From the sequence record DRR378314_107: a stretch of DNA of 29,432 bases. One strand, given 5' to 3'. Both the position numbers and the translations under genes were made by a program. Positions 604 to 26,645 of the stretch are shown here, piece after piece (within the stretch, counting starts at the first letter, position 1; the number at the start of each line of letters is the position of its first letter). The notes beneath the pieces were generated by a model. It made no database searches and was not told where the DNA came from. It saw only the letters and a program-made list of their open reading frames with translations.

Positions 604-1470
604 TTATTTCAACGGCGGTTCGGGCCAGAAATTAAACTCCGCGGGCACATGGTTGAGATCGGTATCGAACACCGGGTCCCGTTTTTCCAGGAAGGCGGTG
701 AAGCCGTCCTTGCCGTCCCAGAACTCGTTGGCGCGGTAGATCATTCTCGACTCCACCGCGTGGGCCTGCATCGGATGATCGAAGGTGGGGTTGCGCCACA
801 GCATCTGTTTGGCCAGCGCCACCGATACCGGTGAGCTTTTGGCGATCAGCTTGCGGGCCAGCGCCAGGGCGGCGTCGAGCACCTCTTCCTTGCCGTGCAG
901 GCTGCGGAACAGGCCCGCTTCCAGACCTTCCTCGGCGAGGAAGATGTCGCCGCTGTAGACCCATTCCAGCGCTTTCTGCATGCCCACCGCGCGGGGCAGG
1001 AACCAGGTGGAGCACGCCTCCGGCGTCAGGCCGCGCTGGGTGAAGACGAAGCCGATCTTGGCGCCCTCGGCGGCCAGGCGGAAGTCCATCGGCAGGGTCA
1101 TGGTGATGCCGACGCCCACGGCGGCACCGTTGAGCGCGCCGATCACCGGCTTGCGGCAGTTGAAGATCGCCAGCGACACCTCGCCGCCGGAATCACGGAT
1201 GGTGTCCACCGGCGGCTCCTCGCCCTCGGCATCGTCGTAACCGAACACATGGCCGCCGTCCTCGGGCTGCATCTCCATGCCGGCACAGAACGCCCGCCCG
1301 GCGCCGGTGACCACCACCGCGCGCACCTGGTTGTCGCGGTCCGCCTCGCCGAACACGTGCACCAGCTCGTCCTTCATGCGCAGGGTGAAGGCGTTCATGC
1401 GGTCGGGCCGGTTCAGGGTAACGGTGAGAATATTGTCCGCCAGCTCGGTGCGGATGTGCTGGTACTCCAT
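604..1470 (-). CDS. Enoyl-CoA hydratase/isomerase (crotonase) family protein
   Basis: LNRPDRMNAF, GRAFCAGME, KPVIGALNGAAVGVG, PEACSTWFLPR, AFLEKRDPVF motifs. Confidence 0.93.
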   Translation of the reverse strand: MEYQHIRTELADNILTVTLNRPDRMNAFTLRMKDELVHVFGEADRDNQVRAVVVTGAGRAFCAGMEMQPEDGGHVFGYDDAEGEEPPVDTIRDSGGEVSLAIFNCRKPVIGALNGAAVGVGITMTLPMDFRLAAEGAKIGFVFTQRGLTPEACSTWFLPRAVGMQKALEWVYSGDIFLAEEGLEAGLFRSLHGKEEVLDAALALARKLIAKSSPVSVALAKQMLWRNPTFDHPMQAHAVESRMIYRANEFWDGKDGFTAFLEKRDPVFDTDLNHVPAEFNFWPEPPLK

Positions 1471-1485
1471 GATAACTCCCGGTTT

Positions 1486-2265
1486 TTATTGATCGTGAAG
1501 GCGGGGCTCGTCGAGATGCTCCACCTGGATGGGGAAGGCTCTAGCATAGCGGGAAGGCAGGGTGTCGAACATGGCACGGAGGGTGCGATTGAGATGCGGC
1601 TGATCGTAGAAGCCGGCGGCAAGCGCCAGATCCGTGAGGCTCATGCCGTCACGCCAGAGGGTCAGCGCCCGCTGGCACTTGAGATGCAGCTGGAAGCGCT
1701 TCAGATTGACGCCCAGTTCTTCGCGGAAAAGGTGCCGGAACCGGGATTCGGACAACCCCACCGCCTCGGCCAGGGCGGCGCCGCCCAGGCCGGCGGCGTC
1801 GTCACCCCGGCGCAGGGCGCGGCAGGCGAGCACCACGCGCGGATCCAGCGGACGGGGTTCACCGGCTTCCAGGGTGGCGCGCGCCGCCAACGCCGCGGCG
1901 GCGGACGGCGACGCCGCCAGCTCGTTCAGGCAGGCGCGGAAACGGGGATGTTCGGCCAGCGGAAACTCACCGCCCGGGCCCTGCAACCGCAGCGCCCGCC
2001 AGGCACGGTGGTCCGGGTCCAGATGCAGCACCGCCACCGGACCGTCACTGTCCAGCGCCTGATCCACATCCGGCGCCGCCCAGACCGCCTCGGCGGTGAT
2101 CCAGTGGCCGGCCAGCTGCACGCGAATCGGCTCACGGCCCAGGCTCACCAGCAGCGACGCCGCCACATGGCTGTGCGGCCGGTTATGCAGATGCGGCGCC
2201 AGCATGCACCAGCCCCCTTCCCAAAGGAAAAGGGGCGAGCGGGGGCGCGCTTCAGCGTCCGCCAT
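1486..2265 (-). CDS. AraC-family transcriptional regulator
   Basis: C-terminal LAEAVGLSESRFRHLF...LTDLALAAGFYDQPHLNR double HTH; N-terminal cupin-like HxHxH. Confidence 0.9.
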   Translation of the reverse strand: MADAEARPRSPLFLWEGGWCMLAPHLHNRPHSHVAASLLVSLGREPIRVQLAGHWITAEAVWAAPDVDQALDSDGPVAVLHLDPDHRAWRALRLQGPGGEFPLAEHPRFRACLNELAASPSAAAALAARATLEAGEPRPLDPRVVLACRALRRGDDAAGLGGAALAEAVGLSESRFRHLFREELGVNLKRFQLHLKCQRALTLWRDGMSLTDLALAAGFYDQPHLNRTLRAMFDTLPSRYARAFPIQVEHLDEPRLHDQ

Positions 2266-2277
2266 TCGGCGCCCGGT

Positions 2278-2778
2278 TCAGGACGGGCGGCCGTGGCCCG
2301 GGGTGCGGCTGAGCCCCAGCTTGTAGGCCAGCTCCAGGCTGACGAACACCGGGCCCACCAGCAGGAACACCAGGTCGTCGGTGAACGACGGCTTCTTGCC
2401 TTCCACCTTGTGGCCCCAGACCTGCACCGCCCAGGCCACCAGCCACAGCACCAGCGCGCTCCAGCCCAGCGACAGGGCACTGCGGTCGACCAGCGTGACC
2501 ACCGCGATGGACACCGCCAGCCAGCCCAGCATCAGCAGGGACACCCCCATGGAAAGCCGCAGGTAGAACGGCATGCACAGCACCGCCAGCAGGGTGCCGC
2601 CGTTGACCCAGTAGGCCGCCGCGCCTTCCAGGCCCAGCCACTGGCCGACCGGAATCAGCCAGAACAGCCCCAGCGTGGAGACGAAAATCGCCGGCACACA
2701 AAAAATATGCACCCACTGGTTCACCGGGTGGCGATGGCTGTCGCCGTAATCATGTAGAAAAGTCGACAGATCACGCAT
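2278..2778 (-). CDS. DUF962 / Mpo1-like membrane protein
   Basis: YGDSHRHPVNQWVHIFCVP and QVWGHKVEGKKPSF motifs, about 4 hydrophobic segments, GAGGAG RBS. Confidence 0.88.
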   Translation of the reverse strand: MRDLSTFLHDYGDSHRHPVNQWVHIFCVPAIFVSTLGLFWLIPVGQWLGLEGAAAYWVNGGTLLAVLCMPFYLRLSMGVSLLMLGWLAVSIAVVTLVDRSALSLGWSALVLWLVAWAVQVWGHKVEGKKPSFTDDLVFLLVGPVFVSLELAYKLGLSRTPGHGRPS

Positions 2779-2801: not shown

Positions 2802-2860
2802 AGGGCCTGTTCACACTACCTCAAACACTAGCGACGCGGACGTCGGCAAACTTGTATGTA

Positions 2861-2888
2861 GCGGCTGGCGGCCGGCGGCTGGCGGTCA
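2861..2888. repeat. Short tandem heptamer repeat (GCGGCTG-like x4)
   Basis: gcggctg gcggccg gcggctg gcggtca read directly. Confidence 0.55.
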
Positions 2889-3290
2889 ATCGCCGCGGCG
2901 GCTGTCGTTCAGCGCCTGCAGCACCGCCCGGCGGGTCAGCAAGCCCACCAGCCGGTCGCCGCTGTCCAGCACCGGGTAGATTTTCGGCTTCTGCTTGACC
3001 ATCAGCCCGGCCACGTCGACCACCGAATCGTCCTCGCGCACGGTGAGCGGCTGATCGTGCATCAGCTCTTCCACCCGCAGTGACCCTTCCTGGTGATAGC
3101 TGGACACCAGCAAATGGCGCAGGCAGTCCTGCTCGGAGACGAAACCGATCACCCGGTGATCGCCGTCGATCACCGGCAAGCCGGTATAGCGCCCGTTCAA
3201 CAGTGTCGCCACCACCGACGTCATTTCGGTGCCCGCCACCAGAGAGGGCGGGTGCCGCACCATCAGATCCCTGACCACTAACGAAGCCAT
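2886..3290 (-). CDS. Stand-alone CBS-pair protein
   Basis: VRDLM...GLPVID...IGFVSEQD; VEELM...YPVLD...VGLLTRRAV tandem CBS repeats. Confidence 0.9.
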   Translation of the reverse strand: MASLVVRDLMVRHPPSLVAGTEMTSVVATLLNGRYTGLPVIDGDHRVIGFVSEQDCLRHLLVSSYHQEGSLRVEELMHDQPLTVREDDSVVDVAGLMVKQKPKIYPVLDSGDRLVGLLTRRAVLQALNDSRRGD

Positions 3291-3416
3291 TTGCCAATCT
3301 CCTTGTCACCGCCGCGATCATCACGTCCGTACCCCGACTATACACCGCCGCGGCGCGGATGACGCCCGCTCACAGCGTCCCTACAATGGCGCGAAACCAT
3401 TAAAAAGGAACAGACC

Positions 3417-6116
3417 ATGGGGTTTTCGCGGCGGCACCGGTTTTATTTCGTCCTTGTGGCGTTATGGCTTACCGGTCCGGCCCTTGCCGCCAGCGACGCC
3501 CAGTGCCAGCGCGAACAGGCCGCGCTCAACCAGTGGCGCGAAGGCAACCAGCGGCTGGAGACGCATCTTGAGCACCTGGACGCGGCCCTGGCCGGGGAAC
3601 CGGTGGCGCCGGCGGCGCTCACCGACGCGCTCGGCGCCGCCCCCACCGGCAGCGCGCCGCCGCCGTCGCGGGCGCCCGCCGCCGTGGTGCCCGGCTGCGA
3701 CGCCCTGGCCCCGGAGTACAAAGGGGTGCGCGAACGAACCCTGCGGCTCACCGAACAACGCCGGGCGAAACGGCTGCAATGGTTTGAGCTGGCCGACGAA
3801 CAGCGGCGCGCCCTGACCACCTGGCACGAGCTCTATCAGAACCTGGCCGGCGCCCCGGCCGAGGGCGGCTCCGACGATTATCTGCGCGAGCGCCTGGCCG
3901 GCCTGATCGCCCTGACCCCGCTGCTGCGCCGGGACCCGGCCGCCGCCTTCACCGCGCTGGACCGGCTGGCCCGGCGCCCGGGCACCCCGCCCTGGCTGAG
4001 CGCGGCGGAACCGGCCCAGGAGATGCTCTGGCGCCGGCAAAGCGCCGAGGCGCAACGCCAGGTGCTGGCGCTGCGCGCCGCTTTATGGGATCAGGCCGGC
4101 GGCCTGTCGCTGTTGACCGGGGGCGGCGGGCTCGACGCCGCGCTGACGGTGATTGATCTGGAAACCGGGCTGGCCGTGGACCGTCTCTATCAGGCGTTCC
4201 AGCTCACCTTCCAGGAGGGGCGCCTGAACGGCGAGATGCGCCGCTATCTGCCGCTGCTCAGCAACGCCCTGGCGCTGCTGCTGGGTATCGCCCTGTTCGC
4301 GGTGCTGATCCATTTCAGCCGGCGCGGCAAAAGCGCCCTGCTGTCGCTGCACGCACGCGTCATGGAAGCCAGCGGCGGGCGCCGCTGGCTGTGGAACCTC
4401 AGCCGACTGGTGGCGGGGCTGGCGCCGCTGCTGCCGTGGCTGATTCCCTGGTTCGCCCTCGACCTGGTGGAACCGGCGCTGCAGGCGCCCTCCACCCGCT
4501 TGCTGCTGTGGCTACTGCCGCTGGCCCGGCTGTACGTGGTGTTCGGGCTCACCTGGCTGATCGGCGAATGGCTGGTGCTGCGCGTGGCCCAGGGCGCCGG
4601 CACCTACCTGAACGGCGAACAGGCCAACCAGGCCGGCGAACGGGCGCGCCGCGTGGCGGTCTGGCTGACGCTGCCCTGGGCGCTGTTCCTGGCGGTGGAC
4701 CAACTGCTCGGCGGCGGCCTGCTGCACGATTTCAGCGGGCTGCTGCTGGGGGTGGCGCTGTACGCCGCCATCGGCCGCCTGCTGACGCAGCGCGGCGAGG
4801 ACTACCTGGTGTGCCTGCAGAGCATTCTGCCGTCGCGGCTCGACCCCCTGGCGGCGCGCCTGCTTAGTCAGCGGCTGTTCTCCTGGACCGCGCCCTTGCT
4901 GCTCCCGGTGGCTCTGGTGTACTTCGTGTTCCGTTACCTGGACCAGCTGCTGGCCGGCGCCGACTGGTACCTGCGCCTCAAGGCGCGCTGGTTCCGGATG
5001 CGCGCGCAAAGCGGCGACGAGGACGACAAGGCCGAAGACGACACCCGGCCCGCCCGCGAGTACCAGCAGTGGTTCGACGCCGGCCTGCCCGACGACGAGC
5101 CGGCGCCCTTTATCGATACCGGGCTCACCGACGCCATGGAAAAGGCGATTCAACGCTGGCGCGAGGACAAAACCGACGAGAACACCCTGCTGGTGGCCGG
5201 CGAGAAAGGCAGCGGCAAAAGCATGGCGGCGCGCCGCCTGACCCGCGCCCTGGAGAAAAACGACGAGGGCCTGCGGGTGGTGTCCGTGGCGGTGCCGCCC
5301 AAGACCCTGGCCCCGGAGGACGTCATCGCCCTGGTCGCCGAGGCCCTGGACGAGTCTCTCGAGGAGGGCCCCGCCAGCCTGGTGAAGAACGATGAGCAGC
5401 GCCGCCCCACCCTTTTGGTATTGGATGAAGCGCAGAATTTCTTCCTCGCCCGGATCGGCGGTCTGGAAGGCTGGCGCACGCTGCTGCGTTTGACCAACGC
5501 GCGCCTGGACAATCTGTTCTGGCTGGTGCTGCTCAACAACCAGAGCTGGGCGTACCTGTGCAATGTGTTCGGCCGGGAGTATCAGTTCCGCAATGTGGTG
5601 CGGGTGAAGCGCTGGGGGCAGAGCGAGATTCGCTCCCTGATTCTGTCGCGGCATCATCTTTCCGGCCAGACCCTGCGTTACGACGAGGTGCTGCTGTCCT
5701 CCCGGGGACCGGAGGCGGGCAATGTGCGCAACGCCGAGCAGCGCTACTTCAGCCTGCTGTGGGACGCCTGCCGGGGTAACCCGATGGCGGCGCTGAGGCT
5801 GTGGCTGAGCTCGGTGAAGGTGACCCGTCGCCAGGTGCTGGTGGGGCTGCCCGCCAAACCGCAGGGCACCGCGGTGGAAAAGGCCGGCGAGAATCTGCTG
5901 TTCGTGTACGCCGCCATCGCCACCCACGAAAACCTGTCCAGCGGGGAGATCGTGGCCGCCACCGACCTGCCGGAAAACGTGGTGCGTTACGCCCTGAAGG
6001 CGGGCTTCGACGCCGGCTTTATCCGCCAGAGCGACGACGGCCGGTACCGGCTGGTGCCGCTCTGGTACCACACCGTGATCAACCATCTGACCAGGAAGAA
6101 TCTGCTCCATGAATGA
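3417..6116 (+). CDS. Large membrane protein with signal peptide, periplasmic helical region, multiple TM helices and a C-terminal P-loop ATPase domain
   Basis: Signal-like N-terminus ending ALA; hydrophobic core about aa 280-510; Walker A GEKGSGKS (5199-5222), Walker B LLVLDE, later GNP motif and a likely winged-helix tail. Confidence 0.82.
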   Translation: MGFSRRHRFYFVLVALWLTGPALAASDAQCQREQAALNQWREGNQRLETHLEHLDAALAGEPVAPAALTDALGAAPTGSAPPPSRAPAAVVPGCDALAPEYKGVRERTLRLTEQRRAKRLQWFELADEQRRALTTWHELYQNLAGAPAEGGSDDYLRERLAGLIALTPLLRRDPAAAFTALDRLARRPGTPPWLSAAEPAQEMLWRRQSAEAQRQVLALRAALWDQAGGLSLLTGGGGLDAALTVIDLETGLAVDRLYQAFQLTFQEGRLNGEMRRYLPLLSNALALLLGIALFAVLIHFSRRGKSALLSLHARVMEASGGRRWLWNLSRLVAGLAPLLPWLIPWFALDLVEPALQAPSTRLLLWLLPLARLYVVFGLTWLIGEWLVLRVAQGAGTYLNGEQANQAGERARRVAVWLTLPWALFLAVDQLLGGGLLHDFSGLLLGVALYAAIGRLLTQRGEDYLVCLQSILPSRLDPLAARLLSQRLFSWTAPLLLPVALVYFVFRYLDQLLAGADWYLRLKARWFRMRAQSGDEDDKAEDDTRPAREYQQWFDAGLPDDEPAPFIDTGLTDAMEKAIQRWREDKTDENTLLVAGEKGSGKSMAARRLTRALEKNDEGLRVVSVAVPPKTLAPEDVIALVAEALDESLEEGPASLVKNDEQRRPTLLVLDEAQNFFLARIGGLEGWRTLLRLTNARLDNLFWLVLLNNQSWAYLCNVFGREYQFRNVVRVKRWGQSEIRSLILSRHHLSGQTLRYDEVLLSSRGPEAGNVRNAEQRYFSLLWDACRGNPMAALRLWLSSVKVTRRQVLVGLPAKPQGTAVEKAGENLLFVYAAIATHENLSSGEIVAATDLPENVVRYALKAGFDAGFIRQSDDGRYRLVPLWYHTVINHLTRKNLLHE

Positions 6117-6927
6117 AAGCGGCGATATTGTCACGGACCTGGCGGTGGTGGTGGACCTGTTCAACGCCTACGCCATTCTTTTGCTGGTGGCCGGCGGCTT
6201 CTGCCTGTGGGCGCTGAACTGGGGCATTCAGAAAGTCAGCGGCTCGCTGATGGACAAGGTGCCGGCACGCCGCTTTCTGATCCTGCAGATCACCACGCTG
6301 ATCGGCTTTCTGATCTACACCCTGGGCACCGGCGCGCTGATCGTCGGGGTGCTCAACCCGCCGCGGGAATTCATCCTGGCGGCGGCGGGCTCGATCGCGG
6401 TGGCGCTGGGCTTCGCGCTCAAGGACGTGGCGGCGTCGCTGGTGGCCGGCCTGCTGTTGCTGTTCGACCGGCCGTTCCAGGTCGGTGACCGGATCAGCTT
6501 CGGCGACACCTACGGCGAGATCGTCGCCATCGGCCTGCGCGCGGTGCGCGTGCAGACGCTGGACGACAACCTGGTGACGATTCCCAACGCCCGTTTCATC
6601 ACCGACGTGGTGGCCTCCGGCAACGCCGGCGAGCTGGACATGATGGTGGTCACCGACTTCCATGTGTCGGTGCAGGCGGACCTGGAACAGGTGCGCGGCA
6701 TTATCGAGGAAGTGATCGTCACCAGCCGCTACGCCTATTTGAAAAAGCCGGTGACCTTCGCCATTGAAGAGGTGGAAATCGGCAACGCCCTGGCGGTGCG
6801 GTTCCGCTCCAAGGCCTATGTGCTGGACGTGCGCTACGAAAAAGCGTTCCAGAGTGACGTGGTGTTGCGGGTCACCGCGCTGTTCCGCGACCAGGAGATT
6901 CCCCGGCCGCGGATACTGCGCGACTGA
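6109..6927 (+). CDS. Small-conductance mechanosensitive channel (MscS family)
   Basis: VALGFALKDVAASLVAGLLLLFDRPFQVGDRI...GEIVAIGLR...DDNLVTIPN signature; 8-nt overlap with the upstream gene. Confidence 0.93.
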   Translation: MNESGDIVTDLAVVVDLFNAYAILLLVAGGFCLWALNWGIQKVSGSLMDKVPARRFLILQITTLIGFLIYTLGTGALIVGVLNPPREFILAAAGSIAVALGFALKDVAASLVAGLLLLFDRPFQVGDRISFGDTYGEIVAIGLRAVRVQTLDDNLVTIPNARFITDVVASGNAGELDMMVVTDFHVSVQADLEQVRGIIEEVIVTSRYAYLKKPVTFAIEEVEIGNALAVRFRSKAYVLDVRYEKAFQSDVVLRVTALFRDQEIPRPRILRD

Positions 6928-6935
6928 ACGGAGCG

Positions 6936-7820
6936 TTAGCGGGGCGCCAGCTCCGGCCGGTCCAGCATCTCGGCCAGCCGTGCCAGGGCGCGCTCGCGCA
7001 CCGCGCGGCTGTCTTTCTTTTCCGGGTGGAACGACGGCTTGTAGTAAGCGGCGTAGGAACGACCCAGCCGGCGCAGCCAGCCCGGGCGGCCGAGCAGCCA
7101 GTTCAGGCCGTTGCCCACCGAGCGCAAATCACGCTTGTCGTCCATGCCCTGGCGCAGCTGGATGTAGTGGAAGATGGTGAAGCCGATGAATTCCACCGTG
7201 GTCAGCGCCATCTCCGACGTGCGCACCCAGTAGCTGCCCACCTGATCGGCATAGACGTCGAACGCCACCGCCTTGTGCTCGCTTTCCTCGATGGCGTGCC
7301 ACAGCCACAGCGGCAGCATGCGCTCGTCCATGCCTTCCAGGAACTCGGGCTCCTCAAGCATCAGCTCGGCGAGCATGGCGGTGAAATGCTCCAGGGCACA
7401 GGTCTTGGCGAGCTGCCGCTCCGGAGAAAACTTCTTGGCGATCCACTTCATGCCTTCATGAACATAATCGTGCACCTTTTGAGTGGGCACGCCCTTGCTC
7501 TCCATGAAGGCGTTGAACTGTTCGTGTTCGTTACCGTGGTGCGCCTCCTGGCCGATGAACCCTTTCACCCGCTCGCGCAGATCCGGGTCGGTGATCCGTT
7601 TCTGGTAGTGGCGCACCGAGCGCACGAAGAAGCGCTCGCCTTCCGGGAAGGTACAGGACAACGCGGTCAGCAGGATGGTCTTGAACTGGTCGCCGGCGAA
7701 CCAGTAGCGCGGCATGTCCGGGTCGAACTGGAAATCCATACGCCGGGGCTGAATGTCGCTGCCGTTGGTGCGGCGCGGCTCGTTCGGGGAAATCGGGGCT
7801 TTGGCGTTCATAGCAATCAT
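6936..7820 (-). CDS. 'Predicted metal-dependent hydrolase' family protein (start may be 7811)
   Basis: FPEGERFFVRSV, FIGQEAHHGNEH, ALEHFTA, WHAIEESEHKAVAFD, YYKPSFHP motifs. Confidence 0.85.
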   Translation of the reverse strand: MIAMNAKAPISPNEPRRTNGSDIQPRRMDFQFDPDMPRYWFAGDQFKTILLTALSCTFPEGERFFVRSVRHYQKRITDPDLRERVKGFIGQEAHHGNEHEQFNAFMESKGVPTQKVHDYVHEGMKWIAKKFSPERQLAKTCALEHFTAMLAELMLEEPEFLEGMDERMLPLWLWHAIEESEHKAVAFDVYADQVGSYWVRTSEMALTTVEFIGFTIFHYIQLRQGMDDKRDLRSVGNGLNWLLGRPGWLRRLGRSYAAYYKPSFHPEKKDSRAVRERALARLAEMLDRPELAPR

Positions 7821-8093: not shown

Positions 8094-8834
8094 TCAGGCG
8101 GTGGCTTTGAGCCAGTCGGTCAGCTCGTCGGCGCCACCGATACGCTGGCCTTCGATGTACACCTGCGGCGTGGTGCCGGCGCCGGTGACGGCGGCCAGGG
8201 TGCTGTAGCTCAGGCCACGGTTGCCCAGTTCGATTTCCTCGAACTTGAAGCCGGCGTCGCGCAGTTCGCGCTTGGCGCGGGCACAGTGCGGGCAGCCCGG
8301 CTTGGTGAAGATGGTCACCCGTTGGGGCAGGGACGCTTCACCGTTGATGTGGGTCAGCATGGTGTCGGCGTCGGACACTTCGAACGGGTCGCCGGGCTTC
8401 TCCGGCTCAATGAACATCTTCTCGATCACGCCGTCCTTCACCAGCATGGAATAGCGCCAGCTGCGCGGACCGAAACCCAGATCCTGCTTGCCGACCAGCA
8501 TGCCCATCTTTTCGCTGAACTCGCCGTTGCCATCCGGAATGAAACGGATGTTGTTGGCGTCCTGATCACCGGCCCAGGCGTTCATCACGAAGCCGTCGTT
8601 CACCGACAGACAGATGATTTCGTCAATGCCGTTGGCTTTGAACACCGGCGCCAGTTCGTTGTAACGCGGCAGATGCGTGGACGAACAGGTCGGCGTGAAC
8701 GCGCCGGGGAGGGCGAACACCACTACGTTTTTGCCGGCGAACAGATCATCAGTGGTAACGTCTTTCCACTCGTTCCCTTCGCGGGTACGGAACGTAACTT
8801 CAGGTACTTTTTCGCCTTCACGATTCTCCAACAT
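8094..8834 (-). CDS. Hybrid peroxiredoxin (Prx5)-glutaredoxin
   Basis: [14 protein letters not shown] peroxidatic motif, [16 protein letters not shown]-terminal Grx domain with CPHC and TTPQVYI..IGG. Confidence 0.95.
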
Positions 8835-8914
8835 TAAATGCTTCCTCCTGTTCGGTGCATCGGAATGTGGCTGAATGATGAGAGCATGGTAGCCACCGCG
8901 CCCTCATCAATAAA

Positions 8915-8951
8915 ACGGATAGTTTCTATATAGCGAATAGCCCTTCGCTAT
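8915..8951. promoter_or_regulatory. OxyR-type binding site upstream of the Prx-Grx gene
   Basis: ACGG-N7-CTAT(8926)-N7-ATAG(8937)-N7-CTAT(8948): three perfect tetramers at the ATAG-N7-CTAT-N7-ATAG-N7-CTAT spacing. Confidence 0.8.
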
Positions 8952-9400
8952 CAATCGCCCAGGTGGGCGGACAGCATCCAGGCGGCCTTCTCGTGGATCT
9001 CGATACGCTCGCTGGCGATTGCCGCGGTGCCTTCGTCCTCATGGCCGGCGGCCAGCTTGAGCACCTTGTTGGCGCGCTCCGCCACGATGCGATGGTCCGC
9101 GGTCAGCGTCTTCAGCATTTCCGTGGCGTCCGGCTCGCCCTCGGCGTCCTTCACGGAAGACAGACGGGCGAAGGCCGCGTAGCTGCCCGGCGCTTTATCG
9201 CCCAGGGCGCGAATGCGCTCCGCGATGGTGTCCACCGCCGTCGCCAGCTCGGTGTACTGCTGTTCGAACAGCAGGTGCAGGCTGTGGAACATCGGGCCGG
9301 TGACGTTCCAGTGGTAATTGTGGGTTTTCAAATACAGGGTATAACTCTCCGCGAGCAGTTTACTCAGCTCCTGGGAGACTTCTTTGCTGTGTTCAATCAT
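8951..9400 (-). CDS. dps: Dps DNA-protection/ferritin-like protein
   Basis: KTHNYHWNVTGPMFHSLHLLFEQQY...DTIAERIRALG...HEKAAWML. Confidence 0.96.
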   Translation of the reverse strand: MIEHSKEVSQELSKLLAESYTLYLKTHNYHWNVTGPMFHSLHLLFEQQYTELATAVDTIAERIRALGDKAPGSYAAFARLSSVKDAEGEPDATEMLKTLTADHRIVAERANKVLKLAAGHEDEGTAAIASERIEIHEKAAWMLSAHLGD

Positions 9401-9474
9401 GGTGCTCTCCTTTGCGGGAATGTCCGGATTGACTCCAATACCTTCACGCTAAGCCCTTGGGGTCGGAACCGCGA

Positions 9475-9511
9475 ACTCATTTTCGATATACTCGTCATAG
9501 CTTGGTGCAAT
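9475..9511. promoter_or_regulatory. Degenerate OxyR-type site upstream of dps
   Basis: ACTC-N7-ATAT-N7-ATAG(9497)-N7-CAAT, same register as the site at 8915. Confidence 0.5.
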
Positions 9512-9601
9512 CGAACCTTTATCCGCGCTTTGCAAGCCGCAAAGCCAGCGCTCATGATGCGCGTTTTCAGTGAACGGCGGGTTAACACTCAAGGAACGTG
9601 T

Positions 9602-10279
9602 ATGACGACACCTTCTACACCCTCCGCGTCTTCCGAGCCGGGTCAGCCGGACTACCCTCTGATCGAAGAGGTGATCAACAGCCTCACCCATGCCATCGGC
9701 CTGCTGCTGAGCATCGCCGGCACCGCGGTACTGGTGGCGTCGGCCAGCGTCCAGGGCGACCCCTGGAAAATCGTTTCCTTCAGCGTGTTCGGCGCCAGCC
9801 TGGCGCTGCTGTACGGCGCCAGCATGCTCTACCACGGCAGCCGGCGCCCGCATTGGCGGGCGCTCTACAAGATGCTGGATCACTGCGCGATTTTCGCGTT
9901 GATCGCGGGCACCTATACGCCGTTTCTGCTGGTCAATATGCGCGGCACCGTGGGCTGGACCCTGTTCGGCGTGATCTGGGGGCTGGCGTTCACCGGTATC
10001 GTTCTGAAGCTGCGTTTCGGTAACCGCTACAAACTGGCCCGGGTGGGGATTTATCTGGCCATGGGCTGGCTGGTGATGTTCGCGTCCGGGGAGCTGATGG
10101 ACACGGTCAGCCCGTTGGGCTTCTGGCTGCTGCTCGCCGGCGGCATCACCTATACCGCCGGCGTGGTGTTTTATCTGGCCGACCGGCTGCCGTACAACCA
10201 CGCCATCTGGCATCTGTTCGTGGTGGGCGGCAGTGTCTGCCATTTCTACGCTATCTACTACGCGGTGCTGCCCGCCTGA
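9602..10279 (+). CDS. Hemolysin III / PAQR-family membrane protein (YqfA/TrhA-like)
   Basis: EEVINSLTH, SMLYH, LDHCAIFALIAGTYTP, HAIWHLFV..S.CHF; start moved to ATG 9602 after AAGGA. Confidence 0.92.
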   Translation: MTTPSTPSASSEPGQPDYPLIEEVINSLTHAIGLLLSIAGTAVLVASASVQGDPWKIVSFSVFGASLALLYGASMLYHGSRRPHWRALYKMLDHCAIFALIAGTYTPFLLVNMRGTVGWTLFGVIWGLAFTGIVLKLRFGNRYKLARVGIYLAMGWLVMFASGELMDTVSPLGFWLLLAGGITYTAGVVFYLADRLPYNHAIWHLFVVGGSVCHFYAIYYAVLPA

Positions 10280-10285
10280 CGGGCC

Positions 10286-10762
10286 TCAGAGCAGCGCTTC
10301 GATGTCGTCGGCGAGCTTTTCCGGCTTGTCTTTCGGCGCGTAGCGCTTGACCACGTTGCCGTCGCGATCGACCAGAAACTTGGTGAAGTTCCATTTGATC
10401 GCCTCGGTGCCCAGCAGGCCCGGCGATTCCGATTTCAGAAACTTGAACACCGGATGGGCGTTGTCGCCGTTGACGTCCACTTTTTCGAACATCGGGAACG
10501 AGACGCCGTAATTCTTCTCGCAGAAGGCGCCGATTTCCTCGGCCTCGCCGGGCTCCTGGCGGCCGAACTGGTTGCAGGGGAAACCCAGTACTTCCAGCCC
10601 CCGGTCGGCGAAGTTGGCGTACAGCTTCTGCAGCCCTTCGTATTGCGGCGTGAAGCCGCACTTGCTGGCGGTGTTCACCACCAGCAGAACCTTGCCCTTG
10701 TAGTCGGAGAGGGGCTTTTCCTCGCCGTTGAGCGTGCGTGCCTTGTAGTCGAAAAGACTCAT
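10286..10762 (-). CDS. Glutathione peroxidase (Cys type, BtuE/Gpx-like)
   Basis: VVNTASKCGFTPQY, LGFPCNQFGRQEP, IKWNFTKFLVD; start MSLFDY at 10762 after AAGGAG. Confidence 0.95.
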   Translation of the reverse strand: MSLFDYKARTLNGEEKPLSDYKGKVLLVVNTASKCGFTPQYEGLQKLYANFADRGLEVLGFPCNQFGRQEPGEAEEIGAFCEKNYGVSFPMFEKVDVNGDNAHPVFKFLKSESPGLLGTEAIKWNFTKFLVDRDGNVVKRYAPKDKPEKLADDIEALL

Positions 10763-10829
10763 GGACCTTCTCCTTATCAAAGGGCGGTAACGCCGGCGGG
10801 CACTCAGGCCCGCCGGCCCGGCGGTGCGC

Positions 10830-11504
10830 CTAGTCCGAGTATAGCGCGTCCACCACCGCTTTCGCGGTCACTTCGCTGGACGGCGGGTTCTGACCGGTGA
10901 CCAGGCGCCCGTCGGTGACCACCTGGGGCTCGAACTTGCCCTTGTTGTGGATCTCCGCGCCCAGCTCCTGGAGACGGCTTTCCAGCAGGAACGGCATCAC
11001 CTCGTCGAGGCCCACTTCGCGCTCCTCTTCGTTGGTGAAGCAGCTCACACGGCGGTCCTTGACCAGCGGCACGCCGTTTTCGTCGCGCACCCCGACCAGC
11101 GCCGCCGGGCCGTGGCAGACCGCGCTGATTACACCGCCCTGGGCCCAGGTACGCTCCAGCACGCCGGCCACCAGCGGGTTGTCGGGCATGTCGAACATGG
11201 CGCCGTGACCGCCGGGCACGAATACCCCGACGAAGCCGTCTTCCCAGATTTCCTCCAGGGGGCGGGTGTCCTCCAGCTCGGCGATGGCGTCCTTCCACTG
11301 CTCTTTCTGCTCATCGTCGGGCACCGAGCGGGGATCGATCGGCACCTTGCCGCCGGTGGGGCTGGCGACACGCACCGGCACCTTGTTGTCGCGGAAAATC
11401 TGGTAGGGGATCGCAAACTCTTCCAGCCACAGACCGGTCTGTTGCCCCTGACCCATCTGCGATGCGCTGGTGACCAGCATCAGAAGTGGCTTGTCCAAAT
11501 TCAT
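10830..11504 (-). CDS. DJ-1/PfpI (Hsp31-like) type 1 glutamine amidotransferase domain protein
   Basis: TGLWLEEFAIPY, PGGHGAMFD, AVCHGPAAL, LVTGQNPPSS. Confidence 0.92.
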   Translation of the reverse strand: MNLDKPLLMLVTSASQMGQGQQTGLWLEEFAIPYQIFRDNKVPVRVASPTGGKVPIDPRSVPDDEQKEQWKDAIAELEDTRPLEEIWEDGFVGVFVPGGHGAMFDMPDNPLVAGVLERTWAQGGVISAVCHGPAALVGVRDENGVPLVKDRRVSCFTNEEEREVGLDEVMPFLLESRLQELGAEIHNKGKFEPQVVTDGRLVTGQNPPSSEVTAKAVVDALYSD

Positions 11505-20107: not shown

Positions 20108-20586
20108 TCGAAAATCTCCTTCAGTGGCCGCTCATAGCGCTGCTTGATCTGCCGGATCATGGCGTCTTGGTCGTCCACGTCGAGGGCATGGATCAGCAGG
20201 GTGCGCCGGTCCTCGCTGACATCGGCACTGACCGTGCCCGGCGTCAGCGAGATGGTGCTGGCGAGCAGCGTGATGGCGAACTCGTCGGTGAGGTCCAGCG
20301 GCAGCTCCACGAACCCGGGCCGCAAACGCCGGGGCGGCCCGAGGATCAGAATCGCCACCGCCATATTGGCGGTGAGAATGTCCCAATGCACCACCAAGAC
20401 GAACCGCACCAGCTTGGGGAAGTTGCGCAGGCGCGGCACATTGGGCCAGAAAGACTGGGTGCCCAGCGGCAGCACCACCGCGAGCACCAGACCGAGCAGG
20501 GCGTGCCCCCAGGAGAAGCCGTTAAGCAGCATCCAGGTGGCCCACAGAAACAGGCTCAACAGCGGAAACGGCAATACTCGACTCAT
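20101..20586 (-). CDS. mrpE: Mrp/Pha antiporter subunit E
   Basis: LASTISLTPGTVS, LLIHALD, IKQRYERPLKEIF; start 20586 overlaps the mrpD stop. Confidence 0.93.
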   Translation of the reverse strand: MSRVLPFPLLSLFLWATWMLLNGFSWGHALLGLVLAVVLPLGTQSFWPNVPRLRNFPKLVRFVLVVHWDILTANMAVAILILGPPRRLRPGFVELPLDLTDEFAITLLASTISLTPGTVSADVSEDRRTLLIHALDVDDQDAMIRQIKQRYERPLKEIFEC

Positions 20587-22073
20587 AACGCACTCTCCCC
20601 GGCGCCCAGCACCGCGTCGATATACAGGCCGGGCTGCGCCCACTGCCCGGCCACCGCCAGGCAGGCTTCAAGCACCGGCTCGCCCCAGATCGCCAGCGCC
20701 GGGGTGGTGGCCAGCAGCGCCACCGTGGCCGCCAGGCGCGGCCCGTCCAGGCTGCGTTCTTCGCCGTCGCCGGTGGCCCGCCAGAACAGCGTCGACCCGG
20801 CCCGGCTCAGGCCGATCAGGGCGATCAGGCCGCCGCCCAGCAACAGCAACCAATAGACCGGCGCCGGCACCGCCTGCATCAGGGCGACCTTGCCGATAAA
20901 GCCGGATAACGGCGGCAGGCCGACCACGGCGATGGCGCCGGCGAAAAACAGCGCGCCGAGCACCCCGCGGCCGACGGGGGACGGCCCCGCTTCAAGCCGG
21001 TCCGCCAGTTCCCCACGCCCCCGGGACACCAGGTCCGCCAGCAGAAACAGGCCGCCGCACACCAGGGTCGAGTGGATCAGGTAGTAAAGCATGGCGCCGA
21101 AGGCCTCCGGCGACGACCAGGCCAGCCCGGCCACCAGCGTGCCCACCGACATCACCAGCAAATAGGCCACCATTTCGCCGAGGCGGCGGGCGCCGAGCAC
21201 GCCCACCGCCGCCAGGCCCAGGGTGATCAGCGCCAGAATCCACAGCGGGTCCCGGCCCAGCCCGGCCAGCGCGCCGCCGCTGAACGCCAGGCCGTACACC
21301 CGGGCGATGGCGTAAATGCCCACCTTGGTCATGATCGCGAACAAGGCCGCCACCGGCGCCGTGGCGCTGGCGTAGGTGGCCGGCAGCCAAAAGTAGAGCG
21401 GGAACAGCGCCGCCTTCAGGCCGAACACCACCCACATCAGCAGGCCGGAAAGGCGCGCCAGATCCAGGCTGTTACCCTCCATCTCACTCACTTTGACCGC
21501 AAAGTCGGCCATATTGAGCGTACCGGTGGTGCCGTAGGCGAGCCCCAGCGCAACCAGGAACAGCGCCGAACCGATCAGGTTGAGCACCACATAGTGAATG
21601 CCGCCCTTCACCCGGGCCGGGCCACGGCCGTGCAGGGCCAGCCCGTAGGAGGCGATCAACAGCACCTCGAAGAACACGAACAGGTTGAACAGGTCGCCGG
21701 TCAGGAAGGCGCCGTTGATGCCCATCAGCTGCAGCTGGAACAACGCGTGGAAGTTGGCGCCGCGCCGGTCGTCGCCACGGCTGCCGTAGATCAGCGCCGG
21801 CAGCGCCAGCACCGCCGTGAGCAGCACCATCAGGGCACTCAGCCGGTCGAGCACCAGCACGATGCCGAACGGCGCCCGCCAGTCACCCAGCTGATACACG
21901 CCGATATCGCCGCTGGCCGCCTGCTGCCACAGGCCCAGCGCCACGGGGATCAATGCCAGGGTCGCCAGCAGACCGGTGAGGCGGCGCAGGCGCTGGCGTT
22001 CGCGGACCTCCAGCAAAAGCAGCATGCCCGCGAACGCGGGGATCAGAATCGGCGCGATGATCAAATGTTCCAT
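20583..22073 (-). CDS. mrpD: Mrp/Pha antiporter subunit D
   Basis: GDWRAPFGIVLVLDRLS, GAFLTGDLFNLFVFFEVLL, KAALFPLYFWLP, TKVGIY, GLPPLSGF. Confidence 0.95.
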   Translation of the reverse strand: MEHLIIAPILIPAFAGMLLLLEVRERQRLRRLTGLLATLALIPVALGLWQQAASGDIGVYQLGDWRAPFGIVLVLDRLSALMVLLTAVLALPALIYGSRGDDRRGANFHALFQLQLMGINGAFLTGDLFNLFVFFEVLLIASYGLALHGRGPARVKGGIHYVVLNLIGSALFLVALGLAYGTTGTLNMADFAVKVSEMEGNSLDLARLSGLLMWVVFGLKAALFPLYFWLPATYASATAPVAALFAIMTKVGIYAIARVYGLAFSGGALAGLGRDPLWILALITLGLAAVGVLGARRLGEMVAYLLVMSVGTLVAGLAWSSPEAFGAMLYYLIHSTLVCGGLFLLADLVSRGRGELADRLEAGPSPVGRGVLGALFFAGAIAVVGLPPLSGFIGKVALMQAVPAPVYWLLLLGGGLIALIGLSRAGSTLFWRATGDGEERSLDGPRLAATVALLATTPALAIWGEPVLEACLAVAGQWAQPGLYIDAVLGAGESAL

Positions 22074-22408
22074 CAGCCGTCCTCCCCGTCGGAGCCACCG
22101 TCCACGTGATCGCTCTTCATTTCACCCTGGCCGCGCAGGGCCAGCACCACCAGAAAGGCGGTCATGGCGAAACCGATCACGATGGCGGTCAGCACCAGCG
22201 CCTGGGGCAAGGGGTCGCTGGCGTTTTCGGACATGCCCACCACCGGCACCTGGTTCAGGCTCAAGCGGCCGGATACGAACACGAACAGGTTGACCCCGTA
22301 ACTGAGCAGCGTAATGCCCAGAATCACCGGGAAGGTGCGCGCGCGCAGGGTCAGATAGACGCCGCAACCGACCAGCGTCGCGATGATCAACGCAAGCATC
22401 ACTTCCAT
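22073..22408 (-). CDS. mrpC: Mrp/Pha antiporter subunit C
   Basis: DPLPQALVLTAIVIGFA signature. Confidence 0.95.
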   Translation of the reverse strand: MEVMLALIIATLVGCGVYLTLRARTFPVILGITLLSYGVNLFVFVSGRLSLNQVPVVGMSENASDPLPQALVLTAIVIGFAMTAFLVVLALRGQGEMKSDHVDGGSDGEDG

Positions 22409-25248: not shown

Positions 25249-25490
25249 AGGCAATCCGTTGTCAGTTGCGGCAACGCCGCGTCGAGCTTATCAGTAAATC
25301 ATCAACTCAGCGTGACAACGGGCGGATCCGGGAAATAGGGGCGGCGGCCCCGCCGCGGGCAGTGGGCGGGCATACTGATCATTCTGTGGTGCCGCAATTG
25401 GCAGTCCATACAAAACCGAATCACTGAAAAGGGTCCGTAGTATGCCACGCCGATCCGGGGCGAACACAAGACCGGCCCGCCACCCGGGTA

Positions 25491-26255: not shown

Positions 26256-26312
26256 GGTGTCCCCGTTGGAAATCAGGTCAAAAATATTGCCACGGTCGGC
26301 CCGGCGACTAAA

Positions 26313-26339
26313 GAACTTGCTTGCCCGCCCCGGGTCCAC
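26313..26339 (+). promoter_or_regulatory. Putative sigmaE/AlgU promoter
   Basis: GAACTT-N16-TCCAC about 50 nt upstream of the lipoprotein start. Confidence 0.5.
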
Positions 26340-26388
26340 CTTTAACATGGACCCAGGATAAAACACGCAACCGACCCCGGAGACACCC

Positions 26389-26628: not shown

Positions 26629-26645
26629 CGTCCAAGGACACCGCT

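Follow-up and report, generated by a model that had tools for sequence, protein, structure and literature searches.

A widespread two-gene cassette pairs an MscK-like membrane AAA+ protein with a distinct clade of MscS-family channels

Introduction

Channels of the MscS family are the textbook case of direct gating by membrane tension, and the use that MscK and MscM make of their N-terminal extensions is still poorly understood. The DNA analysed here (the window, 29,432 nucleotides of sequence record DRR378314_107) holds two overlapping genes which a first-pass annotation had read as a split MscK-like channel, namely an 899-aa membrane protein carrying a STAND-type NTPase switch and, overlapping it by 8 nt, a three-TM MscS channel. 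The locus thus raises the question of whether the two proteins are subunits of one channel, to what class the ATPase belongs, and whether it could regulate the pore. The annotation knew of no characterised example, and none was found in the literature that we searched; nor did that literature yield a description of an ATPase/MscS pairing, and the sources name the genes nothing beyond 'AAA ATPase' and 'mechanosensitive channel'.

Results

Layout of the locus

Both ORFs and their overlap were confirmed (Table 1). Across the 67 loci examined the overlap measures 8 nt in 39, 11 nt in six and 14 nt in eight, and nine further loci have a gap of 2-9 nt between the genes. The conserved stop/start overlap is suggestive of translational coupling, by which the two proteins would tend to be made in similar amounts. 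The promoter candidate lies about 30 nt 5' of the gene 1 start codon and is the single site within positions 3250-7100, compared with 0.2 expected from shuffles. The hairpin 3' of gene 2 is no better than chance as a terminator candidate, given the hairpin counts for the region. RNA-library contigs cover the locus, which is not in itself proof of transcription.

Table 1. Features of the two-gene locus, in window coordinates.
Feature	Position	Strand	Basis
Sigma-70-like promoter candidate: ATGACG, 17-nt spacer, TACAAT	3359..3387	+	consensus match only
Shine-Dalgarno-like AAGGA, 7 nt ahead of the ATG at 3417	3405..3409	+	read from sequence
Gene 1 (899 aa): membrane protein with MscK-like N-terminal module, AAA+ ATPase and winged helix	3417..6116	+	
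Signal peptide, Sec-type, residues 1-24, ending ALA-AS	3417..3488	+	by eye from sequence; hydropathy
Periplasmic all-helical domain, residues 25-278	3489..4250	+	AF2 pLDDT mostly >90
Transmembrane module, residues 279-512; probable remote homologue of the first part of MscS_TM (PF12794) of MscK/MscM	4251..4952	+	
Amphipathic basic helix and acidic linker (SGDEDDKAEDD), residues 513-560	4953..5096	+	
AAA+ ATPase core, about residues 561-770	5097..5726	+	Pfam, motif counts, fold matches
Lid helices with G787-N-P789, about residues 771-822	5727..5882	+	
Winged helix and conserved C-terminal tail, residues 823-899	5883..6113	+	AF2 secondary structure
Stop/start overlap of gene 1 and gene 2, 8 nt, ATGAATGA	6109..6116	+	sequence
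Gene 2 (272 aa): three-TM MscS-family channel of a partner-specific clade	6109..6927	+	
Terminator-like hairpin, weak, 3' of gene 2	6994..7008	+	region: 3 found vs 2.2 expected

Pairing, related cassettes and distribution

The neighbourhood check proposed with the annotation showed the genes to be conserved as a pair. All 25 genome loci, two of them from Bdellovibrionota, have an MscS gene directly downstream of gene 1 in the same orientation, and so do 69 of the 78 metagenome loci; of the nine metagenome misses, six sit at contig ends, with a downstream flank of at most 140 nt. In a sample of 400 genomes taken at class level, the five genomes matching the ATPase profile are also the five best MscS scorers, with both matches adjacent in each. 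Clustering of all ORFs from 103 loci revealed no third conserved gene. Hence the pair is close to obligate. No fusion of the two genes was seen among the 150 best representatives of gene 1, all of which are at most 1082 aa and so too short to include the channel.

The next four best MscS-scoring genomes that we inspected have a protein of about 400 aa encoded upstream of the channel. In these related cassettes the same clade of MscS proteins is accompanied by partners that lack an MscK-like N-terminal module and any evident TM segment. Their P-loop is intact in some and degenerate in others; Walker A is not intact in four of the six inspected, so hydrolysis cannot be the universal mechanism. 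The long N-terminal module is therefore not needed for association with MscS, and what stays constant is an ATPase fold together with MscS, not a membrane module together with MscS. In all the loci examined, the partner MscS clade occurs with an ORC-like ATPase or pseudo-ATPase.

The gene 1 family comprises at least 311 clusters (50% identity) matching at E <= 1e-30, found in Pseudomonadota, in Bdellovibrionota and in many metagenomes from sediment, marine and groundwater settings. At class level the cassette is sparse, the ATPase profile being found in 5 of 400 genomes and the long form in only one. Within the Alcanivoracaceae gene 1 occurs as one copy, and a genus has it in nearly all genomes or in none (16/19, 24/24, 1/1, 3/3 and 7/7 for five genera against 0/3, 0/1, 0/8 and 0/4 for four others); it stands in conserved synteny with housekeeping genes.

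The gene 2 channel

The gene 2 product matches Pfam MS_channel_2nd (PF00924), the model for the conserved pore helix TM3 and the beta domain after it, over residues 106-168 (E 9.7e-19; 67.7 bits, cut-off 20.2). Its hydrophobic segments number three, at about residues 11-29, 51-82 and 89-125, in line with the family plan of three membrane helices (N-terminus out, C-terminus in) and a cytoplasmic alpha-beta domain. It matches MscK, MscS and MscM structures at E values from 5e-17 to 1e-11, the best PDB match being MscK (7uw5, E 5e-17), and the alignment to T. tengcongensis MscS spans residues 36-265. MscK is also the best NCBIfam match; in both cases its lead is small. A quick tree placed 65 of 66 partner MscS proteins on one side of a branch with an SH-aLRT of 100, as a clade separate from the MscK/M cores and from other MscS types; it does not come out of this tree as a resolved sister of the MscK/M cores. 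Across phyla the channel is 42-66% identical.

Membrane and periplasmic parts of the gene 1 product

The signal peptide, the two cysteines, the helical periplasmic part and the acidic linker that had been noticed at first reading are all present, as are the Walker A, Walker B and GNP motifs discussed below. Conserved columns of the family alignment in the periplasmic domain include the Cys30/Cys94 pair, R220 and E249, with cysteine in 78 of 90 occupied rows at the first position and in 84 of 88 at the second. The AF2 model falls below a pLDDT of 50 at residues 535-541, within the linker region. The several TM helices described earlier appear as six hydropathy peaks between residues 280 and 512. 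Six passes would put the ATPase outside the cell, an even number being at odds with a cytoplasmic ATPase, and in four of the five distant relatives that we inspected the signal peptide is followed by five peaks. For this reason five membrane passes are likelier than six.

We compared the N-terminal family alignment with ten MscK/MscM-like proteins using hhalign, and obtained a probability of 94.9, a P value of 4.6e-8 and a score of 81-82, against scores of 38-41 (P 2-3e-3) for reversed controls and a mean of 32.1 (sd 3.9, maximum 40.5) for 16 block-shuffled controls. The alignment pairs residues 288-464 of the gene 1 product with residues 500-667 of an MscK-like template in which Pfam MscS_TM covers 498-814. 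An independent set of 30 distant members gave a probability of 94.9 and a P value of 4.2e-8 against the same proteins, with 556 colinear columns through both the periplasmic and the TM parts (columns 34-640 against columns 128-732 of the MscK-like alignment), the periplasmic part aligning colinearly with the MscS_porin (PF12795) region. For the clade of the gene 1 product itself the match to MscK-like proteins covers the TM part only.

Searches by Pfam model and by fold missed this likeness. By HMMER, Pfam MscS_TM and MscS_porin matched none of 48 gene 1 family members at E <= 0.01; the per-domain fold check suggested at first reading gave no Foldseek match for the N-terminal model at E <= 0.001 (MscK 7uw5 ranked 13th, at E 2.7); and a wide VIA search with that model returned generic helical matches only (best Z 10.6). 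The link to MscK is thus drawn from profile-profile comparison alone, by which the N-terminal two thirds of the gene 1 product is judged to be a remote, colinear homologue of the MscK/MscM periplasmic and membrane module. Since the accessory part is remotely homologous to and colinear with MscK/MscM, and the best matches of gene 2 are to the MscK core, 'split MscK-like' is a fair description of the architecture.

The ATPase, lid and winged helix

Pfam AAA_22 matches residues 587-705 (E 3.8e-12; 47.1 bits, cut-off 27). Walker A (GEKGSGKS, 595-602), Walker B (LVLDE, with D670-E671) and a polar sensor-1 residue, N707, are all present; among 124 relatives Walker A is intact with K601 kept in 123, D670 in 120 and N707 in 99. 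R745, kept in 117 of 124 rows, is a candidate arginine finger, the residue that in AAA+ oligomers acts in trans. In the lid, G787 and P789 are invariant (124 of 124 rows) and the sensor-2 position, 790, is Met in the gene 1 product and Arg in 54 of the 124 relatives. The short C-terminal helical domain reported earlier is resolved by the AF2 model (pLDDT 89.5) into a helical lid and, after it, a winged helix at the C-terminus. The winged helix carries H837, found in 123 of 124 rows, and ends in a tail of the form K-N-[FL]-[LI]-[YH]-[EG]; TrmB-like wHTH matches were obtained in 4 of 48 relatives.

For the ATPase part the fold check was informative. The best Foldseek matches are to ORC/Cdc6 (E 4e-7), and plant NLRs and CED-4 also appear, at E 5e-6 to 5e-5. 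VIA matched 7jgr_G with Z 15.9 (rmsd 3.4, 239 residues), 2qby_B with Z 15.8 (304 residues over 548-895, the archaeal Orc1/Cdc6 alignment running through residue 895), TnsC 7mbw with Z 15.2 (266 residues over 539-899) and BrxC with Z 13.8; no NLR is among its top 50. The GxP motif and winged helix that had prompted the STAND assignment do exist in the gene 1 product, and H837 is a candidate counterpart of the winged-helix His that contacts the nucleotide in that class. The Pfam STAND models all score below threshold (NACHT 18.5 against 26.7, nSTAND3 16.7 against 27.2, nSTAND5 15.1 against 34), the STAND matches shown for 48 relatives are likewise all under their cut-offs, and no repeat-type sensor (TPR, WD40, LRR) follows the NTPase, since the protein ends at the winged helix with residue 899. 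With AAA_22 above its cut-off and VIA Z values of 15-16, the ATPase is best placed with AAA+ proteins of the ORC/Cdc6/TnsC type.

Predicted binding

A complex prediction, a kind of check suggested in the annotation, gave, for residues 270-899 of the gene 1 product with the gene 2 product, ipSAE values of 0.58, 0.58 and 0.57 against 0.00 for the best control, in a benchmark range (ipSAE <= 0.60) where only 5 of 78 solved complexes passed, along with all four of the passing mismatches. The runs showed 100% contact agreement and a partner pLDDT of at least 75, and gave no interface. These values lend weak support to physical binding of the two proteins.

Discussion

The data are best accommodated by a two-subunit MscK-like channel in which the AAA+ subunit regulates gating, a reading to which we give a probability of roughly 0.6. 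Both products would then be subunits of one inner-membrane complex of the MscK/MscM type. Gene 2 would encode the subunit that forms the pore, an MscS core that is presumably heptameric like every solved MscS-family channel to our knowledge. Gene 1 would provide in trans the counterpart of the N-terminal extension of MscK and MscM: a helical domain that is secreted and has a putative disulfide, and a membrane bundle of some five helices. At the point where MscK continues into its pore domain, the gene 1 product would end in a cytoplasmic AAA+ module and winged helix. The AAA+ modules may come together next to or below the cytoplasmic cage of MscS, their nucleotide state setting whether, or how easily, the pore opens, while the periplasmic domain could contribute an outside cue, a role that has been proposed for that of MscK. 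Nucleotide or signal gating of the gene 2 channel is what we infer from these parts, as we do the binding, stoichiometry, ring formation, gating effect and physiological signal of the pair.

A more specific form of the proposal, which we hold only tentatively, has an AAA+ ring sitting coaxially on the heptameric MscS cage, with ATP binding or hydrolysis opening or locking the channel. If this were true, the MscS superfamily would gain its first example of gating by a nucleotide-driven machine and not solely by membrane tension. Signals from outside would reach that switch through the MscK-like periplasmic and membrane module, and the partners of about 400 aa and those with a dead P-loop would represent simpler and degenerate versions of the same two-part valve.

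Among the alternatives, an anti-phage or anti-plasmid abortive infection system fares best, and we still consider it improbable. Here the AAA+ protein would be a membrane or cytoplasmic sensor of the invader; it would oligomerise and force the MscS pore open, so that ion gradients collapse and infection halts. Defence systems commonly combine an ORC/STAND-like NTPase and its winged helix with a membrane effector, the cassette is an autonomous pair with no conserved neighbours outside one family, and its sparseness at class level, the BrxC fold match and the degenerate-P-loop variants would all suit such a role. There is also precedent in membrane P-loop NTPases that alter ion flux upon infection, such as Tmn (PMC13001434). 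Against this, the best gene 1 match in PADLOC-DB 2.0 is mad8 (E 0.0055), confined to the P-loop at residues 587-623, and the gene 2 product has no match in that database. Among 122 ORFs in the flanks of 34 diverse loci there are 11 with a PADLOC match at E <= 1e-5, all generic (ABC ATPase, MotB/OmpA, helicase, IscS-like, subtilase, HTH) and none part of a complete system. These flanks, together with the near-fixation of gene 1 within Alcanivoracaceae genera amid housekeeping synteny, argue against an anti-phage role; furthermore, the identity of the channel across phyla implies slow evolution for a defence gene, and a secreted sensor domain with a putative disulfide points to an outside cue.

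The overlap and the weak complex score could also be explained if the AAA+ protein were an assembly or quality-control factor that inserts, oligomerises or removes the channel and is no stable gating subunit, since co-translation would suit a dedicated factor and the score is compatible with transient contact. Membrane-anchored ExeA/GspA, which like the gene 1 product belongs to AAA_22, helps to assemble a secretin. This appears less likely still: in MscK the corresponding N-terminal module belongs permanently to the channel, the retention of P-loop-dead partners fits a structural subunit better than an energy-using chaperone, and we know of no other MscS-family channel that needs a dedicated AAA+ assembly factor. 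A membrane-tethered regulator that relays an envelope signal to transcription or a DNA transaction through its winged helix, as in Orc1/Cdc6 or TnsC, with the MscS gene merely co-transcribed, would agree with the DNA-binding initiators and transposition regulators that are its closest folds and with the TrmB-like matches, but it is very unlikely, as it leaves the pairing with a dedicated MscS clade over about 100 loci and the conserved overlap unexplained, ORF clustering found no conserved neighbouring target gene, and in ORC/STAND-type modules winged helices often serve as internal structural elements.

On the preferred reading of a two-subunit channel, the cassette is a widespread case in which an MscK-type extension naturally stands apart from the pore and is fused to an ATP-binding switch. 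Such a natural split would allow sensor and pore to be expressed separately. The cassette defines a distinct MscS clade and raises the possibility of MscS channels under the control of nucleotide state.

Comparison with known systems

The pair shares with E. coli MscK (KefA) and MscM (YjeP) the order of signal peptide, helical periplasmic domain, extra membrane helices and MscS core. MscK and MscM are single polypeptides, whereas the pair consists of two with an 8-nt overlap; the gene 1 product probably has about five extra membrane helices, compared with eight hydropathy peaks in the MscK-like protein inspected; the AAA+ module and winged helix follow its membrane module where the pore domain follows in MscK/MscM; and the gene 2 channels form a clade apart from the MscK/M cores in the tree.

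An AAA+ core, a lid and a C-terminal winged helix are common to the gene 1 product, Orc1/Cdc6 and the TnsC of Tn7/CAST. PDB titles describe TnsC heptamers (7ufi, 'single heptamer'; 8glw, '7:2:1'), which, purely by analogy, would match a heptameric MscS. Unlike these proteins, the gene 1 product is membrane-embedded, has an ion-channel partner and, in this copy, lacks the sensor-2 Arg. The Tmn/YobI and KAP/PifA phage defence systems link a membrane-tied P-loop NTPase to ion flux (PMC13001434). They differ in NTPase family and topology and have no MscS partner, and neither gene product here has a significant PADLOC match.

STAND NTPases (NACHT, NB-ARC, Avs) have in common with the gene 1 product the GxP motif and a winged helix with a near-invariant His, and their layout of sensor, NTPase and membrane effector is also seen in the pair; they differ in that their Pfam models stay sub-threshold here and in their C-terminal repeat arrays, which the gene 1 product lacks. 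Finally, bCNG channels are single polypeptides with an MscS-family pore and a small appended cNMP-binding domain. The pair shares with them the idea of an MscS-type pore under a cytoplasmic nucleotide-binding module, which here is a separate AAA+ subunit that also carries an MscK-like membrane module.

Results

The gene pair lies in DNA of high GC content (0.59-0.76) that is near-identical to that of Alloalcanivorax venustensis ISO4; in locus L001 the protein product is 99% identical. The first-pass annotation had read here a large protein, P0001, followed by a small MscS gene encoding the channel protein P0002, and this arrangement was confirmed, with an overlap of eight bases, ATGAATGA. Since both flanking genes lie on the minus strand, the pair is an isolated two-gene unit. 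One sigma-70-like site was found for it (0.2 expected) and AAGGA stands 7 bases ahead of the gene 1 start codon; the terminator scan of the pair region gave nothing better than chance. Contigs from four RNA libraries (four runs, four studies) span the locus and bridge the junction; as contigs they are no proof of transcription, nor of one joint transcript.

Neighboring genes in the window have ordinary metabolic and stress functions, namely a Cys/Met PLP enzyme, an enoyl-CoA hydratase, an AraC regulator, an Mpo1-like protein, a PF10118 hydrolase, a peroxiredoxin-glutaredoxin fusion, a ferritin-like protein and a DJ-1 family protein. A run of oxidative-stress-type genes lies downstream of the pair, and ORF clusters of 22-23 loci suggest that an Alcanivorax synteny block is conserved around the pair itself. 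Two long ORFs without a family match are shadow ORFs of the kind that high GC content typically produces; the one antisense to gene 1 is seen again in 57 loci solely because the sense gene is conserved. Farther along, Mrp-type cation/proton antiporter genes coincide with strong AT skew at 20-25 kb, and the most GC-rich part (0.73-0.76) holds another pair of unknown function, DUF2868/DUF3482.

Coordinates of features in the window and in other family loci (L numbers)
Feature	Sequence	Coordinates	Strand
Gene 1, P0001, 899 aa	window	3417..6116	+
Gene 2, P0002, 272 aa	window	6109..6927	+
Gene upstream of pair	window	2821..3345	-
Gene downstream of pair	window	6936..7820	-
Sigma-70-like site	window	3359-3387	+
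Gene 1 tail shared with gene 2 ribosome-binding region and start	window	6085-6116	
Shadow ORF, 550 aa, antisense inside gene 1	window	4512-6164	-
Shadow ORF, 620 aa, across AraC and Mpo1-like genes	window	895-2757	+
Peroxiredoxin-glutaredoxin fusion, ferritin/Dps-like, DJ-1/PfpI	window	8094-11504	-
948-aa fused MrpA/B-like and 496-aa MrpD-like	window	20583-25254	-
DUF815 AAA ATPase (-), then DUF2868 protein (+) and DUF3482 protein with MMR_HSR1 GTPase domain (+)	window	25491-29389	-, +, +
428-aa partner with MscS	L112	2268-3554 with 1459-2271	-
392-aa partner with MscS	L114	2260-3438 with 1441-2259	-
402-413-aa partner with partner-clade MscS	L115	145-1386 with 1399-2244	
402-413-aa partner with partner-clade MscS	L141	2140-3357 with 1326-2345	-
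402-413-aa partner with partner-clade MscS	L142	1807-3015 with 982-1794	-
402-413-aa partner with partner-clade MscS	L143	159-1364 with 1376-2302	
Second MscS-cluster ORF just upstream of large gene	L035	4198-4905	+
Fragment of large gene	L035	4926-5516	
Divergent MscS ORF	L099	472-1305	

The pairing, for which the first-pass annotation had suggested a functional link, is conserved. An MscS gene lies directly downstream in all 25 genome loci (23 from Alcanivoracaceae or close relatives and two from Bdellovibrionota, where the large protein is only 29-30% identical) and in 69 of 78 metagenome loci found with a distant alignment, counting one weak partial match at a contig end (L097). Six of the nine metagenome loci without it end no more than 140 nt past the match (L033, L041, L073, L084, L090 and L103), and it is missing without such an explanation from L105, which has 470 nt of downstream flank, and from L108, a short partial match. 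Complete metagenome channels are 42-66% identical to P0002, and the large proteins 24-47% identical to the first sequence of the alignment. Across 103 loci, clustering of every ORF that reached 100 aa left the two genes as the only real shared clusters beyond the Alcanivorax synteny block; a third was dismissed as an antisense shadow ORF.

Among 67 non-redundant loci, drawn from 87 with a complete channel ORF, the genes overlap by 8 nt in 39, 11 nt in six and 14 nt in eight, and are separated by 2-9 nt in nine. Gaps of 122-163 nt seem to separate the genes in four more loci, but the upstream ORF was miscalled in at least two of these (L035 and L056 have ATGAATGA at the start), and L099 gave an odd value of -49. 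The metagenome locus L035 has another MscS-cluster ORF immediately ahead of the large gene, which is in pieces, possibly through a frameshift or an assembly problem. The C-terminal K-N-[FL]-[LI]-[YH]-[EG] of gene 1 is coded, in the window as in other loci, by bases that also hold the ribosome-binding region and start of gene 2, so this tail may owe some of its conservation to translational coupling instead of protein function.

P0002 has three hydrophobic segments and matches Pfam MS_channel_2nd (E 1e-18). Its best NCBIfam match is the MscK C-terminal core (63.8 bits), ahead of several models for MscS and one for MscM, and its closest solved structure is MscK (7uw5, residues 842-1025, E 5e-17), followed by T. 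tengcongensis MscS, MscM and E. coli MscS. A quick maximum-likelihood tree, built from 91 MscS cores and rooted at the midpoint, has a branch with SH-aLRT 100 that sets 65 of 66 partner channels (those lying beside the ATPase-type protein), including those whose partners are of about 400 aa or degenerate, apart from the MscK/M cores and from MscS proteins of small, middle and ~800-aa size; the tree does not resolve how this clade relates to the MscK/M cores. The single partner row across the root is L099, whose channel is only 37.6% identical to P0002; this locus is a short contig with a start resembling that of L040. Partner channels are more conserved than non-partner MscS in every region (beta domain 0.78 versus 0.53, alpha-beta domain 0.59 versus 0.47), and no region stands out as an interface in this comparison.

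The C-terminal third of P0001 had been labeled a STAND-like ATPase. Pfam AAA_22 matches residues 587-705 (47.1 bits, cut-off 27), whereas NACHT, nSTAND, NPHP3_N and AAA_16 each remained under their own cut-offs, and a sequence-profile search of the PDB with the family alignment returned generic P-loop matches only. An AlphaFold2 model built from 124 sequences (mean pLDDT 89.5) had archaeal and eukaryotic Orc1/Cdc6 as its best Foldseek matches (E 4e-7 to 1e-5), with plant NLRs and CED-4 slightly behind. When Foldseek's matches were re-aligned with VIA, the scores were Z 15.9 for Drosophila Cdc6 (7jgr_G; rmsd 3.4, 239 aligned), 15.8 for S. solfataricus Orc1 (2qby_B; 304 aligned), 15.2 for Tn7 TnsC (7mbw; 266 aligned over 539-899) and 13.8 for BrxC, and no NLR was among the top 50. 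The 2qby_B alignment reaches residue 895 and hence includes the winged helix. Across the 124 family rows the Walker A lysine is kept in 123, the Walker B aspartate in 120 and its second acidic residue in 94, N707 in 99, R745 in 117, G787 and P789 in all 124, and H837 in 123; the arginine after GNP is found in 54 and is Met in P0001. The Walker A/B and GNP motifs noted in the first-pass annotation are thus confirmed, but they belong to an AAA+ ATPase of initiator type with lid and winged helix, not to a demonstrable STAND protein.

In the N-terminal two thirds of P0001, a signal peptide is followed by a helical domain and then by a hydrophobic region at residues 280-512, with six hydropathy peaks versus five in most distant members inspected. 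The helical domain holds two cysteines, and among occupied alignment rows these positions are C in 78 of 90 and 84 of 88. R220 and E249 are near-invariant in the family alignment. Pfam found nothing in this part of P0001 and 48 diverse relatives, neither MscS_TM nor MscS_porin (the MscK/MscM counterparts). A separate AlphaFold2 model of residues 1-545 (pLDDT 90.7, pTM 0.84) had no Foldseek match at E <= 0.001, MscK 7uw5 ranking 13th at E 2.7, and a wide VIA search gave generic helical bundles only; its best Z, 10.6 for Cog2p, is under the tool's meaningful level for helical proteins, and MscK was absent from the top 50.

Profile-profile comparison with ten MscK/MscM-like proteins of 1094-1160 aa (in one of which MscS_porin covers 40-272, MscS_TM 498-814 and the MscS core 872-1072) gave a match that, for 30 distant family members, is colinear across both the periplasmic and membrane parts. 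Reversing either alignment lowered the score to 38-41 (P 2-5e-3; P 0.018 for the 15 rows of P0001 and its closest relatives), and 16 permutations of the MscK alignment in 40-column blocks had a mean of 32.1 (sd 3.9, maximum 40.5). On the profile-profile comparison alone we conclude that the N-terminal module of P0001 is probably a distant homologue of that of MscK/MscM.

Profile-profile (hhalign) comparisons with the MscK/MscM-like alignment
Query	Target	Aligned	Probability	P	Score
Family N-terminal alignment	whole	P0001 288-464 on 500-667	94.9	4.6e-8	81
30 distant ~1030-aa members, none from the clade of P0001	whole	34-640 on 128-732, 556 colinear columns	94.9	4.2e-8	81.9
Same 30 members	first half		92.9	3.6e-7	72.3
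Same 30 members	second half		89.5	2e-6	66.2
P0001 and closest relatives, 15 rows	whole		86.1	5e-6	61.6

Scanned in full with HMMER, 1.84 billion representatives yielded 2067 matches at E <= 1e-3, of which 1318 reached 1e-10 and 311 reached 1e-30. Alignments of the best 150 mostly start at about residue 275-335 and run through the end, and since all 150 are of 1082 aa or less, they are too short to include the channel as a fusion. Among 400 sampled genomes of the class, 376 hold some MscS and five match the family profile, at full length only in the genome nearest to the window. The five best MscS scores (571, 264, 158, 151 and 134 bits) come from the same five genomes, and in each the MscS adjoins the ATPase match.

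In three of these five the partner is of only about 400 aa. Two such partners (L112 and L114) have an intact P-loop and lack the long N-terminal module, with no TM-like stretch evident by eye, and an MscS gene of 270-272 aa directly follows or overlaps each of them; one partner is above the Pfam AAA_16 cut-off, and nSTAND1 is just below its own. The third (genome G293) is known as a 438-aa open frame only. In the next four best MscS genomes (128, 121, 117 and 100 bits) the channel gene directly follows a 402-413-aa partner. Identity among these four partners is 26-38%, and two match the family HMM weakly (E 1e-6 and 3e-5). By eye, Walker A GK[ST] is gone in all four while SW.W, G.P-like, LH..L and C-terminal motifs are retained; they resemble pseudo-ATPase forms of the cassette. 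In the genus of the window, six genomes (G428, G429, G430, G432, G434 and G438) have 680-690-aa open frames starting at about residue 278, in which, as in protein P0012 (651 aa), the periplasmic domain is absent and the membrane and ATPase parts are kept. The MscK-like module is found in long forms only. Because short and long partners stand beside one MscS clade, the constant feature is an ORC-like ATPase fold with a dedicated MscS clade.

Discussion

A role in defence finds little in the genomic data. PADLOC gave nothing meaningful on P0001 and P0002, and among 122 ORFs flanking 34 diverse loci 11 had some match at E <= 1e-5, all to generic domains, with no complete defence system or defence-island signal. 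The cassette is present as one copy in 51 of 70 Alcanivoracaceae genomes, by genus in 16/19, 24/24, 1/1, 3/3 and 7/7 versus 0/3, 0/1, 0/8 and 0/4. The pattern resembles vertical inheritance accompanied by lineage loss, and not the strain-level patchiness typical of defence genes.

The most economical explanation, to which we give a probability of roughly 60%, is that the pair forms a two-subunit MscK-like channel, regulated at the cytoplasmic side by the AAA+ ATPase of its sensor subunit. The sensor subunit would end in the AAA+ ATPase with its winged helix, and this part would sit on the cytoplasmic side of the channel and regulate it. The split MscK-like architecture with an NTPase accessory that the first-pass annotation envisaged thus largely stands, without the STAND label. 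Counting against this reading, the sensor-2 arginine is missing in P0001. The existence of partners with a dead P-loop means that hydrolysis cannot be essential in every form. Such a function is drawn from sequence and models.

Complex prediction for P0001 residues 270-899 with P0002, run without the family alignments built here, scored 0.58, 0.58 and 0.57 (best of three controls 0.00; verdict ‘weak support’), values within the range up to 0.60; on calibration, the passes in that range came from only 5 of 78 solved complexes and from all four of the mismatches that passed. No interface was given.

Database sources name the large protein ‘ATP-binding protein’ or ‘AAA family ATPase’, and Atlas cluster names are equally generic (‘ORC1/DEAH AAA+ ATPase domain-containing protein’, ‘AAA+ ATPase domain-containing protein’ and ‘hypothetical protein’). 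Searches of full-text literature, with most subscription journals outside their coverage, turned up no account of pairing between an MscS channel and an AAA+ or STAND ATPase. In a preprint on Tmn, MscK is mentioned as a purification contaminant (PMC13001434).

Among known systems, P0002 resembles the MscK core most, yet the lead of MscK over other MscS relatives is small, and the link of the P0001 N-terminal module to MscK is invisible to HMMER and fold searches. TnsC, a structural relative of the ATPase, forms heptameric rings according to PDB entry titles, and MscS is heptameric; by analogy only, an AAA+ ring matching the channel is conceivable. Set beside these systems, the cassette would be a new variant on a known kind of channel.
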